Of a stretch of 64,000 nt of DNA, positions 6,124 to 37,695 are shown one piece after another. Made by a program: the position numbers and the translations under genes. A model generated the notes under the pieces. The model was not told where the DNA came from and did not search any database. It was given only the letters and a program-made list of their open reading frames with translations. The first letter of the stretch is position 1, and each line of letters opens with the position of its first letter. The DNA is from Fidelibacterota bacterium (GTDB lineage Bacteria > Fidelibacterota > UBA2242): assembly GCA_035448825.1 (NCBI GenBank), contig DAOTJS010000005.1, positions 6,096-70,095 of the forward strand, in the 5' to 3' direction.

Positions 6124-6145
6124 TTATGCTCCTTGTTTAATTTAT

Positions 6146-6284
6146 TTGACAAGATTAACTCCGAAGGAGTCTCTGATGAGACAAGATTGACATTTTACTA
6201 TTTTTGACAAGATTAACAAGATTGACTTTTTTTCTTTTGACAAGATTAACTCCGAAGGAGTCCCGCTTGGCGGGACAAGATTGA
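6146..6284. repeat. left-flank array: six copies of GACAAGATT(A/G)A plus two ACTCCGAAGGAGTC+hairpin units
   Basis: Motif copies start at 6148, 6180, 6206, 6216, 6239 and 6274. Composite units lie at 6153-6188 and 6244-6282. The array overlaps the 3' tail of the GxxExxY ORF. Confidence 0.85.
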
Positions 6285-6718: not shown

Positions 6719-6768
6719 AAATCTTGTTAATCTTGTCTAATTAATCTTGTCTAATTAATCTTGTCTAA
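6719..6768. repeat. right-flank array: the same motif in inverse orientation (TTAATCTTGTC), with three perfect 14-nt tandem copies
   Basis: TTAATCTTGTCTAA occurs three times at 6727-6768, preceded by a degenerate copy at 6719-6727. Bases 6755-6765 are the exact reverse complement of 6148-6158. Confidence 0.85.
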
Positions 6769-17814: not shown

Positions 17815-18180
17815 ATGAACATTAAAAGTAAGGTATTGTTAATTATTACCATTTCTTTAATAAGTGGTTGTTCGCCAAATCAAGGTCAGCTGACGATTGT
17901 GGATAATGGTGTAATAACCTGGCAATCCGAAACCGGCGAGAAAATCGTGACGCGATTTTATTCCTTATCGGATAGTAGTCTGGAATTCGTCAAAGTGATT
18001 CTGCCGAATGGCGAAGAATACACATTGCCACAGGTTGTATCTGCTTCGGGTGTGCGCTATACCGATGAACGGGAAATCGTGTTCTGGATGAAAGGCGAGA
18101 CGGCGTTTGTCCAGCATCGCGCCCTGGATGGCGAATGGCAGATTTTGTATGATAACTGCCGGATGATTTCAAAACGGTAA
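17815..18180 (+). CDS. MliC-family lipoprotein (lysozyme inhibitor-like)
   Basis: 121 aa with lipobox LISGC. SASGVRYTDEREIVFWMKGETAFV resembles the MliC SGxxY..W.KG.EA motif. Confidence 0.6.
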   Translation: MNIKSKVLLIITISLISGCSPNQGQLTIVDNGVITWQSETGEKIVTRFYSLSDSSLEFVKVILPNGEEYTLPQVVSASGVRYTDEREIVFWMKGETAFVQHRALDGEWQILYDNCRMISKR

Positions 18181-18656
18181 TGGAGTGCGCTAATAATATT
18201 AGCGCTCAAAACTTTGAGGTTGTAGATAGGTACTTTCCTCACTTCGTTCGGAAATGCATTAACGTTGTTGATGCCATCCGGTAGGGGGGAAATGGAGTGC
18301 GCTAATAATATTAGCGCTCGAAACTTTGAGGCTATGGATAGGGTACTTTCTTCGCTTTGCTCAGAAATGCATCAACGCTGTTAATGCCATCCGGTAGGGG
18401 AAAAATGGAGTGCGCTAATAATATTAGCGCTCAAAACTGTAAGGTTGTAGATGGGTACTTTCCTCGCTTTGTTCGGAAATGCATTAACGTTGTTAATGCA
18501 ATCCGGTAAGAGAAAAAATGGATTGCGCTAATAATATTAGTGTTCACAACGGACAGGCTGGCGATAGGTACTTTCCTCGCTTTGCTCGGAAATGCATCAA
18601 CGTTGTTGATGCAATCCGGTAAGAGAAAAAATGGAATGCGCTAATAATATTAGCGC
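18179..18656 (+). repeat. tandem array of 113-nt double-hairpin repeats (4 full units plus a first half-unit)
   Basis: Units start at 18179, 18291, 18404, 18517 and 18630. Each carries hairpin 1 GCGCTAATA-A-TATTAGCGC and hairpin 2 GCAT(T/C)AAC-GNT-GTT(A/G)ATGC. Confidence 0.95.
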
Positions 18657-18694
18657 ATATAGCTGAAAGAAAAATTATCTGCGTAGTTGAAACA

Positions 18695-19270
18695 ATGCTG
18701 AGAATGGATTATATTTACTCTGGAATGGAGGTCTACAAAACATACGAACATAATCCACCTCATTTATTCCGGGAGAACGGAATCTATTTTATAACCGCAT
18801 CAACCTATGGTAAACTTCATCATCTTACCGATACCAACGTGAAGACGTTTTTACGCGATTCTATTTTCAAAGCCTTTAGCGAGGCTGATTGGGAAGTAAC
18901 TGATTGGGTAATTCTTGATAATCATTATCATTTATTAGTAAAAGCAACCGAGCATCCGGAAATATTACCCGAAATTATAAGGGCAATTCACCGTTTTTCA
19001 GCTATTTATATCAGGAAAAACGGGTTAGCTAAGGAAGGTGCTGCCCGAATCTGGTATAATTACTGGGATAGCTGTATTAATACGCTTAATGATTTCTATA
19101 CAGTTGTTCATTATATCTGGTATAATCCAGTAAAGCACGGTTATGTAACGAGTCCCTTTCTGTGGGAATTCGGTAGTTTTCGTAAAAGGTTTATTTCCGA
19201 GGCGGATTATTGTACAAAAATAATGTCTGAATATCCATTGAGCAAAGTAAAGTATTGGGATGATTTCTAA
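18695..19270 (+). CDS. IS200-like / REP-associated tyrosine (Y1, HUH) transposase
   Basis: 191 aa with HUH motif DNHYHLLV and tyrosine motif VVHYIWYNPVKHGY. The start is uncertain (Met at 18695, 18704 or 18725). Confidence 0.8.
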   Translation: MLRMDYIYSGMEVYKTYEHNPPHLFRENGIYFITASTYGKLHHLTDTNVKTFLRDSIFKAFSEADWEVTDWVILDNHYHLLVKATEHPEILPEIIRAIHRFSAIYIRKNGLAKEGAARIWYNYWDSCINTLNDFYTVVHYIWYNPVKHGYVTSPFLWEFGSFRKRFISEADYCTKIMSEYPLSKVKYWDDF

Positions 19271-19299
19271 AGTGGTTATTTTTAGTGCGCAAAAAAATT

Positions 19300-19480
19300 G
19301 ATAGGTACTTTCCTCGCTTTGCTCGGAAATGCATCAACGCTGTTGATGCCAATCCGGTAAGAGAAAAAATGGAATGCGCTAATAATATTAGCGCTCAAAA
19401 CTGTGAGGTTGTAGATAGGTGCTTTCCTCACTTCGTTCGGAAATGCATTAACGCTGTTAATGCAATCCGGTTGGGAATGA
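19300..19480 (+). repeat. continuation of the 113-nt repeat array (second half-unit plus one full unit)
   Basis: GATAGGTACTTTCCTCGC..GCATCAACGCTGTTGATGC spans 19300-19367. A full unit spans 19368-19480. Confidence 0.9.
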
Positions 19481-19481
19481 A

Positions 19482-20804
19482 CTAACTCAGCAACAGTTCC
19501 TTGAACTCGTCATACTCACTGGAAATCACCCGAGACAGAATTTTGCGATCCAGGAATTTTTTCAGGCGGTCGGGAATGGGAACTGTAGCCCCGATGACTG
19601 GTTCGACGATGTCGCGAAACTTCGCAGGGTGAGCCGTTTCCAGAAAAATACCGGTGTCTATTTCTGGATGTTTGGCGAGATAATTTTGAATGCCAAGATA
19701 GCCGACGGCGCCATGAGGGTCAAGAATATAACCGAAATTTCGATAGACTTCGGCAATCGCGCTGCGAGTTTCATCGTCATTAAAATAACTTCCAGCCAGA
19801 TCGCGCCGCATTTTCTCAACGGAATGATCGTAGAGTTCCAGCATCCGGGCGAAATTGCTGGGATTGCCAACGTCCATAGCGTTGGAAATAGTCTGAATTG
19901 AGGTGCGTGGTTCATATTTCCCGGTCGCCAGGTAATCCGGAACGACGTGATTGATGTTAGTAGCGGCGATGAAGCGTGCGACCGGCAAGCCCATTTTTTT
20001 AGCAATTAGTCCGGCAGTCAAGTTGCCGAAATTGCCGCTCGGCACGCAAATGGCGATTTTTCTAGAATGAAAATTGGGGACCTGGCGAATTGCATTGAAA
20101 TAATAGAAAGTTTGAGGAATCAGCCGGGCAATGTTGATCGAGTTAGCTGAACTGACCATCAGAGTTTTCTGAATGTCTGGGTCAACCAGGGCGGTTTTGA
20201 CCAGACGCTGGCAGTCGTCGAAAGTGCCTTCTACTTTTAAGGCGCTGACATTCTCGCCGAGAGTCCCAATTTGTTTTTCCTGAATCAGACTAATCTTTCC
20301 GGCTGGATAAAGCACGACGACATCGATGCCCGGTACCTGGAAAAAACCGTTGGCAACTGCACTGCCGGTATCGCCGGAGGTGGCAACTAGTATTGTGAGT
20401 TTGCGATTATCATTGCGAATGAAATGAGCCATCAGGCGCGACATAAAACGGGCGCCGACATCTTTGAAGGCGAGAGTAGGTCCGTGAAAAAGTTCGAGAA
20501 TTTTAATCTTTTCCGAAAGGTTTACCAGTGGCGTTTCGAAATTTAGAGCCTCGGCAATGATCTCTTGAAGAACCTCAGATGGTAAATCATCGCCAAGTAA
20601 AGCTTTAGCAATTTCATAAGACAGCGATTGAAAAGTCATTTCCGGCAAGTCTTTGAAAAATTTGTCCGGCATAATCGGCAGTGATTCCGGCAGATAAAGC
20701 CCACTATCCGGTGGCATACCCTTTAATACGGCTTCTTTCAGAGCTACTTTATGCGAACGATCAGCAGTACTGTAGTAAAGCAAATTTTTATCCTTCCTGT
20801 GCAA
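19482..20804 (-). CDS. thrC: threonine synthase
   Basis: 440 aa with the PLP-lysine block FHGPTLAFKDVGARF. Confidence 0.93.
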   Translation of the reverse strand: MHRKDKNLLYYSTADRSHKVALKEAVLKGMPPDSGLYLPESLPIMPDKFFKDLPEMTFQSLSYEIAKALLGDDLPSEVLQEIIAEALNFETPLVNLSEKIKILELFHGPTLAFKDVGARFMSRLMAHFIRNDNRKLTILVATSGDTGSAVANGFFQVPGIDVVVLYPAGKISLIQEKQIGTLGENVSALKVEGTFDDCQRLVKTALVDPDIQKTLMVSSANSINIARLIPQTFYYFNAIRQVPNFHSRKIAICVPSGNFGNLTAGLIAKKMGLPVARFIAATNINHVVPDYLATGKYEPRTSIQTISNAMDVGNPSNFARMLELYDHSVEKMRRDLAGSYFNDDETRSAIAEVYRNFGYILDPHGAVGYLGIQNYLAKHPEIDTGIFLETAHPAKFRDIVEPVIGATVPIPDRLKKFLDRKILSRVISSEYDEFKELLLS

Positions 20805-21726
20805 TGATTTTTGGGCCTTCTGTGTTAATCGTCGAGATATAGATTTGGTTGCAGATTTCGTAATTGGCTAAGACAGCCTGCATAGAACCGGCGATTTTTT
20901 GAGCAATTTCTGGCGAGTTTGAAAGCGCAAAAAGCGATGGACCGGAGCCGGAAATACTACATCCGAGAGCGCCGCTGTCCAGAGCAACCTTTTTCATCTC
21001 GTAGAAATGAGGAATGAGTTTTGCCCGCTGAGGTTCGATAATATAATCATTCATTGATCGGCTAATCAACGCTATGTCTTTCCGGTATAGCCCGGCGACC
21101 AGTCCGGCTGTGTTAGCCCATTGTTTTACGGCGACTTTTAGAGGAACGTTCGGGGAAAGAATGTTGCGGGCGTCGGCCGTATTGATTTCGATTTCAGGGT
21201 GAATAATCGTGCAGTAGAGATTTTCCGGAACCGGCAACTCTATGATGTCCGGCGGTTCATAGGAGCGAATTAAAACGAAACCGCCAAAGATAGCCGGCGC
21301 GACATTGTCGGCATGGGCGGCGCCGCAAGCCAATTTCTCCGATTGCATAGCGATCCTGAGCAGTTCGGATTTTGTCAGCCGGTTATCGAAAAGGGTGTTA
21401 AGGGCAAAGAGTACCGCCACAGCACTGGCGGCGCTAGAACCCAATCCGCTACTAAGCGGCATTTTTTTGTGCAATTCGATGGCAACACCTTGCCGGGATT
21501 TAATAGCTTCGAGATAGCGGATGGCGGCGAATCCAGCAGTGTTTTTTTCGGCGGCTTTTGGCAATTTCCCATTGTCGCCGGTTATGCGTGTAATTTCGAC
21601 TCCGGGATTTGCGCGGAGAGTGACTTTGGCAACATCGCCCGGTTCATTAACAGCAAAACCAAAAATATCGAAACCGCAAGCGACATTAGCCACAGTAGCC
21701 GGTGCGAAAACAGTGATAGACTTCAT
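20788..21726 (-). CDS. thrB: homoserine kinase
   Basis: 312 aa with the GHMP kinase motif PLSSGLGSSAASAVA. Confidence 0.93.
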   Translation of the reverse strand: MKSITVFAPATVANVACGFDIFGFAVNEPGDVAKVTLRANPGVEITRITGDNGKLPKAAEKNTAGFAAIRYLEAIKSRQGVAIELHKKMPLSSGLGSSAASAVAVLFALNTLFDNRLTKSELLRIAMQSEKLACGAAHADNVAPAIFGGFVLIRSYEPPDIIELPVPENLYCTIIHPEIEINTADARNILSPNVPLKVAVKQWANTAGLVAGLYRKDIALISRSMNDYIIEPQRAKLIPHFYEMKKVALDSGALGCSISGSGPSLFALSNSPEIAQKIAGSMQAVLANYEICNQIYISTINTEGPKIIAQEG

Positions 21727-24273: not shown

Positions 24274-24348
24274 ATGAACCTTCAGAAGGTCATAATTGGA
24301 AATTATGTGTTAAGCACAGTTTTTTGGAATGACCTTCTGAAGGTTGAT
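24274..24348. repeat. REPIN-like inverted doublet of the CCTTCNGAAGG REP family
   Basis: ATGAACCTTCAGAAGGTCAT (24274-24293) compared with the reverse complement of ATGACCTTCTGAAGGTTGAT (24329-24348) is 19/20 identical. Confidence 0.8.
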
Positions 24349-29407: not shown

Positions 29408-30043
29408 TTGGAAAAAGATTATAAGTATTATCACCTTTATAATCGCGGTTGTAATCGGGAATTGATATTTTTCAAAGACGACCATTATCGTCTCTTACTG
29501 AGAAAAATTAAGGAAAATTATCAGAGATTTTCCCTTAGGATAATTGCCTATTGTTTGATGCCCAATCATTATCACTTAATGGTGGGAGTGCCTGTGGCCG
29601 AACCTTCCGAAGGTTTAAATATGAGATTTACGCAAAACGGTAATTTATCTTACCAACTTACGGAAGGTTCGGTTGCGCTCTCCCGGTTTATGCAGAGAGT
29701 TTTCAACGGCTATGTCCAGGCTGTTAATATTGATATGCACCGTAAAGGCACACTGTTTGAATCAAAATACAAATCCATTGTAATTGACAAGGAGGAATAT
29801 TTATTACAGTTGGTGCGTTATATTCATATTAATCCGGTGCTGGCTGGACTTTGTACAAATCCTGAAGATTGGGAATATTCAAATTGCAAGGAGTGGCTGG
29901 GGTTGAGAAAAGGAATATTGTTCGACTCCGAATTTTTTGGTACATATTTCCAAACAAATGAGCAGTACAGAGAATTTATTAATTCTTACAAAGAGGAAAA
30001 ACTTACCCAGAAGGAGATAAAAAGGTTTTGGATTGACTGGTGA
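29408..30043 (+). CDS. IS200-like / REP-associated tyrosine (Y1, HUH) transposase, second paralog
   Basis: 211 aa from a TTG start. YHLYNRGCNRELIFF at the N-terminus, HUH motif PNHYHLMV, and tyrosine motif VRYIHINPV. It contains an internal REP-like inverted repeat (29598-29672). Confidence 0.75.
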   Translation: MEKDYKYYHLYNRGCNRELIFFKDDHYRLLLRKIKENYQRFSLRIIAYCLMPNHYHLMVGVPVAEPSEGLNMRFTQNGNLSYQLTEGSVALSRFMQRVFNGYVQAVNIDMHRKGTLFESKYKSIVIDKEEYLLQLVRYIHINPVLAGLCTNPEDWEYSNCKEWLGLRKGILFDSEFFGTYFQTNEQYREFINSYKEEKLTQKEIKRFWIDW

Positions 30044-37471: not shown

Positions 37472-37656
37472 ATAATATTTTGGGATTCGATAAATGAAAG
37501 TCAATAGTTTGATTTAAATATCAAAACTTCCCCCAATTTTTTAGTAAGTTTTTCTTATACAGAGTAGGTGATTTTTAAATTAAATAATCTCTACAATACT
37601 TTAAGGTCTTCAGTCTAATCTGGATTTTATGGTAGTAAGATAGAGTTTTTAGATTG

Positions 37657-37695
37657 GATTAACTCCGAAGCAGTCCCGCTCGGAGGGACAAGATT
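37657..37695 (+). repeat. solitary copy of the GATTAACTCCGAAG..hairpin..CAAGATT element
   Basis: GATTAACTCCGAAGCAGTCCCGCTCGGAGGGACAAGATT aligns with 6244-6282 and 6153-6188. Confidence 0.8.

Follow-up and report, generated by a model that had tools for sequence, protein, structure and literature searches.

The 64,000-nt stretch of DNA analysed here (the window) comes from a Fidelibacterota bacterium (contig DAOTJS010000005.1 of assembly GCA_035448825.1), and its ThrC homologues place it in Marinimicrobia/Fidelibacterota. Between a MliC-like lysozyme-inhibitor gene and the convergent gene thrC, the gap is filled, from stop codon to stop codon, by a head-to-tail array of 113-nt units, which is interrupted by a single open reading frame (ORF) of the RayT (TnpA-REP) family, hereafter rayT (Table 1). 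We consider it likely that this locus is a REPtron, i.e. a RayT/TnpA-REP gene accompanied by a local cluster of its cognate repetitive extragenic palindromes (REPs). The array begins at 18179, where the first unit overlaps the TAA stop codon (18178-18180) of the MliC-like gene, and the stop codon of thrC (19482-19484) lies 2-4 nt past the end of the last unit. An initial annotation of this DNA had described the gap as full of units of about 113 nt, the first one overlapping the TAA, and its coordinates proved correct when compared with the Tandem Repeats Finder output and the list of ORFs.

Table 1. Features in and around the gap between the MliC-like gene and thrC, and a second RayT-like gene of the window. 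Related loci are designated by L and a number; positions given for hairpins 1 and 2 are those of the individual copies.
Feature	Position	Strand	Basis or remark
MliC-like lysozyme-inhibitor gene	17815-18180	+	ORF list; Pfam PF09864 (MliC), E 1.3e-13
U1	18179-18291	+	complete 113-nt unit
U2	18292-18404	+	complete 113-nt unit
U3	18405-18517	+	complete 113-nt unit
U4	18518-18630	+	complete 113-nt unit
Solo REP1	18631-18656	+	tag GGAAT 18633-18637, hairpin 18638-18656; directly 5' of the rayT leader
rayT leader	18657-18724	+	alignable to L007 from about 18690 on
rayT (TnpA-REP), 191-aa ORF	18695-19270	+	profile, structure-relative and motif matches
Damaged unit	19271-19367	+	alignment with L007, U3, U6 and the L117 solo unit; profile positions 18-111
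U6, last complete unit	19368-19480	+	92% identical to U1
thrC	19482-20804	-	convergent with the MliC-like gene; homologues named threonine synthase
Hairpin 1 (six copies)	18187, 18299, 18412, 18525, 18638, 19376	+	GCGCTAATAATATTAGCGC; two mismatches in the copy at 18525
Hairpin 2 (six copies)	18256, 18369, 18481, 18594, 19331, 19445	+	GCATYAACGYTGTTRATGC
Module B, 21 nt (six copies)	18234-18254, 18347-18367, 18459-18479, 18572-18592, 19309-19329, 19423-19443		hairpin in the unit spacer
Second RayT-like gene	29408-30043	+	211 aa; motifs PNHYHLM and RYIHINPV

Tandem Repeats Finder reports the 113-nt period at 18179-18656 (4.2 copies, 86% matches), and a profile built on the intact units, compared with the window, recovers U1-U4 and U6 as five full units (E 1e-34 to 1e-36). 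Pairwise identity among the units is 82-92%. The two hairpins per unit that had been recognised initially are each present in six copies at this locus, compared with chance expectations of about 0.01 for hairpin 1 and about 0.12 for hairpin 2. No match was found in the window with Rfam at the gathering threshold. Readings of the array as clustered regularly interspaced short palindromic repeats (CRISPR) or as a structured-RNA gene were dropped, as the units abut without spacers and have no Rfam match. A search of one genome per species with the 19-mer of hairpin 1 returned six single matches in unrelated taxa, which is the level expected by chance, and a scan of metagenomes with tag plus hairpin 1 (26-mer) gave no match.

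The elementary repeat is a 24-nt REP, in which a 5' tag GGA(G/T/A)T directly adjoins a G-C-closed hairpin of 19 nt, which begins with GC and has a stem of 7-8 bp and a loop of 3-5 nt. This single layout fits hairpin 1 on the plus strand as well as hairpin 2 on the minus strand. The 113-nt unit comprises two of these REPs, which differ in their stems and are inverted relative to each other, with the tags on the outside. Its order is tag GGA(G/T)T, REP1 GCGCTAATAATATTAGCGC, a degenerate C hairpin, module B TTTCCTCRCTTYGYTCGGAAA, inverted REP2 GCATYAACGYTGTTRATGC and the complement of the tag, (C/A)ATCC. The spacer between the two REPs consists of the small C hairpin (ACAACC-N4-GGTTGT, decayed in the window) and of the 21-nt module B hairpin, the outer stem of which is present in unit 2 as a compensatory TTTCT...AGAAA version. 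When the two REP types and rayT are taken as the reference, the spacer block of the window, L007 and L117, made up of the C hairpin and module B, is inverted compared with that of L008, L009, L040 and L062, which reflects either an inversion of the spacer or a swap of the REP stems.

Judging from this layout, the unit is a bacterial interspersed mosaic element (BIME) in E. coli terms and an HH heterodimer in Di Nocera's terms. BIMEs combine a REP with an inverted REP through linkers, those present in multiple tandem copies being termed BIME-2 (PMC3333891); the array, with its REP, different inverted REP, linkers and tandem arrangement, corresponds to BIME-2. Long units in strict tandem were initially thought to be foreign to classical REPtrons, a view that is not tenable, as heterodimers with outside tags and small stem-loop spacers, and dimer clusters reiterated in tandem, have been described (PMC3733652). 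The unit does not qualify as a REPIN: its two stems, GCGCTAAT and GCATCAAC, differ, so that folding as a single long hairpin is not predicted, and the predicted folds are separate hairpins.

The tag-plus-hairpin rule holds in every related locus. Across the 25 distinct tag-plus-hairpin sequences collected from the window and its relatives, G1, G2, A3, T5 and G6 are invariant, and the tag (GGAGT/GGAAT) is still found next to RayTs of only about 50% identity (L132, L133 and L135). The repeats have the properties expected of REPs, i.e. extragenic palindromes of 20-40 nt in which pairing is maintained: they are 24 nt long and intergenic. In the window, rayT is flanked by six REP1 on the plus strand and six REP2 on the minus strand, and flanking by cognate REPs, some of them inverted, is also observed in L007-L011, L040, L133 and L135. 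The 25 sequences comprise 25 distinct stems, with changes on both sides at six of the eight stem pairs (38 cells), and their stem covariation score is 0.46, compared with 0.20 for shuffled and 0.04-0.14 for slid partners.

Several points weigh against the REPtron interpretation. The hairpins scored for covariation had been pre-selected for at least 7 of 8 pairs; the percentage of paired positions is therefore circular and only the diversity of the stems is informative. The canonical GTAG (GT[AG]G) is absent from the 5' foot of the hairpins; some REPtron subclasses without GT[AG]G have been reported (PMC6006769). Neither hairpin 1, hairpin 2 nor the unit profile has a copy outside the locus in the 64-kb window. 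Furthermore, the most similar units are not adjacent ones, U1, U3 and U6 being 90-92% identical, and a period of 225 nt scores slightly above that of 113 nt, so that unequal recombination without RayT could have built the array. Such recombination may have contributed to it.

With regard to the protein, the 191-aa ORF scores 101.2 bits with the NCBIfam model NF047646 (REP_Tyr_transpos equivalog; cutoff 80), fails the IS200 model NF033573 (18.4 bits; cutoff 55) and has a weak match to Pfam Y1_Tnp. The closest solved structure is that of E. coli TnpA-REP (PDB 4ER8, E 4.7e-10), the E value for ISDra2 TnpA being 0.35. The HUH motif, H77-Y78-H79 (18923-18931), aligns with the HMH of the E. coli protein, and the catalytic Tyr140 (codon 19112-19114) is located in YIWYNPVKHG, where Y140 and N144 align with Y115 and N119 of E. 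coli. The roles of the HUH, tyrosine and asparagine residues of E. coli TnpA-REP have been described (PMC6006769). The ORF is intact and contains all catalytic motifs. As its relatives begin with MEIYKTY or METYKTY, translation probably starts at the ATG at 18725, which would give a product of 181 aa. Compared with L007, rayT shows a nonsynonymous divergence (dN) of 0.08 and a synonymous divergence (dS) of 0.98, which indicates purifying selection.

According to these matches, the ORF is a domesticated RayT/TnpA-REP, of the HUH single-tyrosine kind of single-stranded DNA (ssDNA) endonucleases, and not an IS200 transposase. Homologues are numerous (661 at E<=1e-5), and those that are named among the matches listed belong mostly to uncultured lineages, e.g. 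Marinimicrobia, KSB1 and Ignavibacteria, with single ones from Zixibacteria, WOR-3, TA06, Cloacimonadota and Planctomycetes. One homologue (P0011) is found on 24 contigs, all of which represent one genomic place, i.e. it behaves as a single-locus gene. The rayT clade of the window has one copy in the 64 kb, which is syntenic with that of L007, but none at the thrC-mliC gap of the closer relative L141.

The position of rayT relative to the units was compared with that in relatives whose RayT is 84% (L007), 66-70% (L008-L011 and L040) or about 50% (L133 and L135) identical to that of the window. In all of these loci, the gene lies between complete units, in the order inverted REP with ACTCC, about 12 nt, ATG to stop codon, 5-13 nt, and GGAGT plus REP. 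L007 is syntenic with the window, as its rayT adjoins thrC and thrB; it has hairpin 2 directly 5' of rayT and a complete unit 3' of the stop codon, in which hairpin 1 carries a compensatory change, GCGCCAAT...ATTGGCGC. Read literally, the window has first hairpin 1 (ending at 18656), then the ORF and then GATAGGTACTTTCC at 19300. The unit profile matches 18631-18668 with its positions 1-38 and 19280-19366 with its positions 18-111; as these two pieces overlap, the fifth unit is not cleanly split. After the rayT stop codon, a new unit starts at the same offset as in L007, with the degenerate TTAGTG (about 19282-19287) in place of GGAGTG. The following 25 nt of the REP1 body are deleted, and the unit continues with GATAGGTAC, module B and the inverted REP2 with its tag (19331-19355). 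Upstream of rayT, the window is 41 nt longer than L007, including the solo REP1, and L007 has no REP1 there. As the alignments suggest, the window junctions are best explained by a secondary rearrangement of a locus whose gene stood between two units.

Units are also present in intergenic gaps of relatives with no rayT of the window clade nearby. In L117, two units are separated by 5 kb. L106 contains a tandem pair (period 194 nt), L062 three copies (period 172 nt), and L026, L044, L082 and L104 single units. These solo units end at the two tags and not at ends resembling those of an insertion sequence (IS).

The initial annotation had rightly recognised an HUH/Y1 enzyme of the RayT kind, on which the NF047646 score and the aligned HUH and tyrosine residues agree, as well as a REPtron-like locus with repeats that are the cognate hairpin repeats of the transposase. 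Its further proposals have to be revised. The gene was said to be embedded in one unit, the fifth, which it would split. The ORF does lie between hairpin 1 and GATAGGTACTTTCC, but the overlap of the two pieces and the degenerate unit start after the stop codon do not agree with a split, and the gene of L007-L011, L040, L133 and L135 is found between units. With these additional copies, the junctions fail to align as those of a split unit, owing to the order in the relatives and to the degenerate start. Nor are the units tnpA-less miniatures of the hairpin 1-linker-hairpin 2 type: they are two inverted tagged REPs that also exist alone, without rayT nearby, in relatives. Finally, nothing places the protein between IS200 and RayT, since it scores 101 bits as a RayT and 18 bits as an IS200 transposase.

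The same evidence bears on an explanation in which the locus would be an autonomous IS200/IS605-like element, delimited on the left by hairpin 1 and on the right by hairpin 2, with the units as tnpA-less miniatures inserting at their own end motif, i.e. an intermediate on the way from an IS to a REPtron. The literal order in the window agrees with it, and a gene bordered by palindromes is common to IS200/IS605 elements and REPtrons (PMC8266576). In the relatives, however, the order is the opposite one, hairpin 2 being upstream and hairpin 1 downstream of a gene that lies between complete units, and the solo units are bounded by two tags rather than by IS-like ends. In the window, the start of a degenerate unit follows the rayT stop codon, the IS200 model reaches 18 bits for a cutoff of 55, and there is no tnpB. 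A TnpA-IS200 inside the mobile unit, as is characteristic of IS200/IS605, is thus not what is observed: the model fails, the gene stands between units and there are units without the gene. On this sequence comparison, the IS explanation is already largely refuted by the relatives, and we regard it as highly improbable.

If the locus is a REPtron, the mechanism can be proposed by analogy with the TnpA-REP of E. coli, Stenotrophomonas and Marinomonas. RayT would bind the folded REP and its tag on ssDNA, cleave near the REP and rejoin the strands. Strand transfer by RayT could then mobilise the units in trans and assemble or expand tandem copies beside rayT, the gene itself remaining outside the copied unit. 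In vitro, tandem BIMEs can be assembled through strand transfer by TnpA-REP, and tandem composite BIME-2 border tnpA-REP (PMC3333891). In Marinomonas, the REPs are concentrated near tnpA (PMC8266576).

A different origin of the array is conceivable, in which slippage or unequal recombination would have produced it, the host would keep it for terminating or stabilising the thrC transcript, and RayT would be a passive or decaying passenger. The similarity among the units suggests the duplication of a two-unit block. On the thrC strand, the REP1 hairpin with its T-run resembles a terminator (5 sites versus 1.5 expected), and roles as terminators and in mRNA stabilisation have been attributed to REPs (PMC3333891, PMC3733652). 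On the other hand, the rayT ORF is intact, with all catalytic motifs, and shows the purifying selection mentioned above, the conservation of the tag down to about 50% RayT identity argues for continued recognition of the REPs by the protein, and L141 manages the same gene pair with a gap of 150 nt and no units. This origin of the array therefore seems improbable to us. As an observation in its own right, the minus strand at 18412-18430, 18636-18658 and 19376-19394 presents the REP1 hairpin followed by ATTCCATTTTTT, in the manner of an intrinsic terminator, and the array may terminate or stabilise the thrC transcript to the benefit of the host.

The history of the thrC-mliC gap can be approached through L141, which is closer to the window (ThrC 89%, ThrB 91% and MliC 80% identical) than L007 (ThrC 77%). 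L141 has kept the gene order with a gap of only 150 nt, in which neither rayT nor a unit is present and nothing really resembles the window gap; the single match, of 12 nt, to the tag region of the unit beside the mliC stop codon is marginal (E 0.009). Between the window and L007, rayT (18725-19267) is less diverged than thrC/thrB (19485-21726) at silent sites, with a third-position identity of 0.65 compared with 0.46-0.50 and a dS of 0.98 compared with 1.5-2.2. In both genomes, the G+C content at third codon positions (GC3) is lower in rayT (0.35/0.43) than in thrC (0.49/0.64). Such a pattern would fit either a loss in L141 combined with a slow evolution of rayT, or horizontal exchange, arrival or re-insertion at the same site.

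The second of these possibilities implies that the whole REPtron, gene and flanking units included, is horizontally mobile and entered the gap after the split from L141, or was exchanged between the lineages of the window and L007. It is consistent with the presence of rayT at the same place in the more distant L007 and its absence, along with that of the units, from the closer L141, with the lower silent divergence and the lower GC3 of rayT, and with the unrelated contexts in which more distant rayT relatives are found. The dS values are near saturation, though, and the genomes differ in composition, which inflates the differences in thrC. Moreover, the identity of thrC between the window and L007 shows no gradient towards the REPtron, as would be the sign of a recombination tract. 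Ancestral presence followed by loss in L141 fits as well, the 12-nt match there being marginal, and loss of tnpA-REP is documented in E. coli (PMC3333891). We thus consider a mobile REPtron possible, although rather unlikely.

The REPtron of E. coli, made of tnpA-REP (yafM) and BIME-2, is a close parallel. In both cases, a single HUH/Y1 gene of the RayT family is bordered by variable numbers of composite units, and these units consist of two different inverted REPs with linkers, are arranged head to tail and vary in number between relatives. In contrast, the tag is GGA(G/T/A)T here and GTAG in E. coli, the stems, which are bulged and imperfect in E. coli, are perfect 8-bp palindromes, the spacer comprises two extra small hairpins, the host is Marinimicrobia-like and no dispersed copies are present within the 64 kb. 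The REPtron Sm of Stenotrophomonas maltophilia has REPs of similar geometry, with a perfect palindrome of 8 bp, a loop of 3 nt and the tag placed immediately 5' of the stem (PMC8266576), and the REPtrons Ma and Mb of Marinomonas share the concentration of REPs beside tnpA (PMC8266576). These systems, which belong to group 2/3 TnpA-REP (PMC8266576), have another tag, and the units described here are longer heterodimers with a conserved structured spacer.

As in the REPIN-RAYT systems of Pseudomonas, two inverted REPs form the mobile unit, and singlets and tandem clusters are found among relatives (PMC3116915). A RayT gene at a single locus may be a further common feature, the clade having one copy within the 64 kb here. 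The difference lies in the REP stems, which are not the same in the two REPs of the present units and are predicted to form separate hairpins. The IS200/IS605 elements IS608 and ISDra2 have in common with the locus an HUH/Y1 core and subterminal hairpins on both sides of the gene, each hairpin having a short motif on its 5' side. They differ in that, here, the IS200 model failed, the gene is outside the repeated unit, tnpB is lacking and the units multiply without the gene.

Considered as a REPtron, the locus is an ordinary one, set apart by the GGAGT tag, the perfect 8-bp stems, the Marinimicrobia-like host and the extra hairpins of the spacer. It leaves the understanding of REPtron systems unchanged. 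It adds a poorly studied uncultured phylum to the hosts of REPtrons whose cognate REPs are well defined. The GGAGT tag is conserved across the RayT clade and the stems are free to vary, which is useful for distinguishing how RayT reads the tag and the hairpin. In addition, REPtron gain, loss and local amplification can be studied in a natural before-and-after series, formed by the window with its array and gene, L007 with the gene between units, and L141 with an empty gap of 150 nt. Module B is the only element that might lead somewhere new.

On the other strand, module B reads TTTCC-GA-RC-NNA-GY-GA-GGAAA. When metagenomes were scanned with the pattern TTTCCTCRCTNNGYTCGGAAA, at least 120 stretches matched (loci L012-L131), and outside units of the window type the module was found in at least 97 distinct, unrelated contexts, on contigs with 31-66% G+C. 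Among the matches listed, 92 of 97 contexts have a Watson-Crick R-Y pair (p ~1e-21), and 11 of 118 matches have a stem that is lengthened by the flanks by 6 bp or more, compared with 2 of 555 controls. When module B is folded on its own with a nearest-neighbour model, the result is not significant (z -0.3 to -1.3), so the evidence for its structure is covariation. Some copies cap longer hairpins. Others are located after tRNA 3' ends (L045, L072 and L093), and one is found within a tRNA-like gene (L110). In some copies an ATG follows after 1-2 nt (L027, L061, L085, L103 and L123), and further ones adjoin 7-nt tandem repeats or form part of a 48-nt tandem array (L088).

Searches of seven module B contigs with Rfam at E<=1 returned only tRNAs and one sub-threshold, unrelated plastid family. 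No mention of the module B sequence strings was found in a full-text search of the literature, one module B context had no match among plasmids, and clustering of the ORFs within 2.5 kb of the module B matches gave no recurrent partner protein. A role as a hairpin that hides the ribosome-binding site was rejected, as only about 6 of 97 cases among the matches listed were convincing. GGAGT-tagged REPs and their RayT clade might represent a third tag superfamily beside GTAG and CGTC, spread over Marinimicrobia and neighbouring uncultured phyla, and module B might be an independent, undescribed single-strand structural or mobile module; we put this joint proposal forward as a speculative one, more doubtful than not.

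The second RayT-like gene of the window (Table 1) scores 73.7 bits with NF047646, just below the cutoff of 80. Its palindrome family, ACCTTCWGAAGGT, is found at 24278, 24332, 29315, 29602 and 30106, i.e. five copies compared with 0.02 expected. One of these palindromes lies inside the gene, in an insert flanked by inverted repeats after the HUH motif. Palindromes of the ACCTTCWGAAGGT type also fill the thrC-mliC gap of L141. Unrelated small repeats based on (A)CAAGATT(A/G) are present at 6144-6282, 6181-6250, 6727-6768 and 37648-37695, and include a 33-nt unit in 2.1 copies and TTAATCTTGTCTAA in three copies. A further family, of 48 nt (TTTTGACAAGATTAACTCCGAAGGAGTCCCGC...GGGACAAGATT), has three copies, one of which is 31 kb away.

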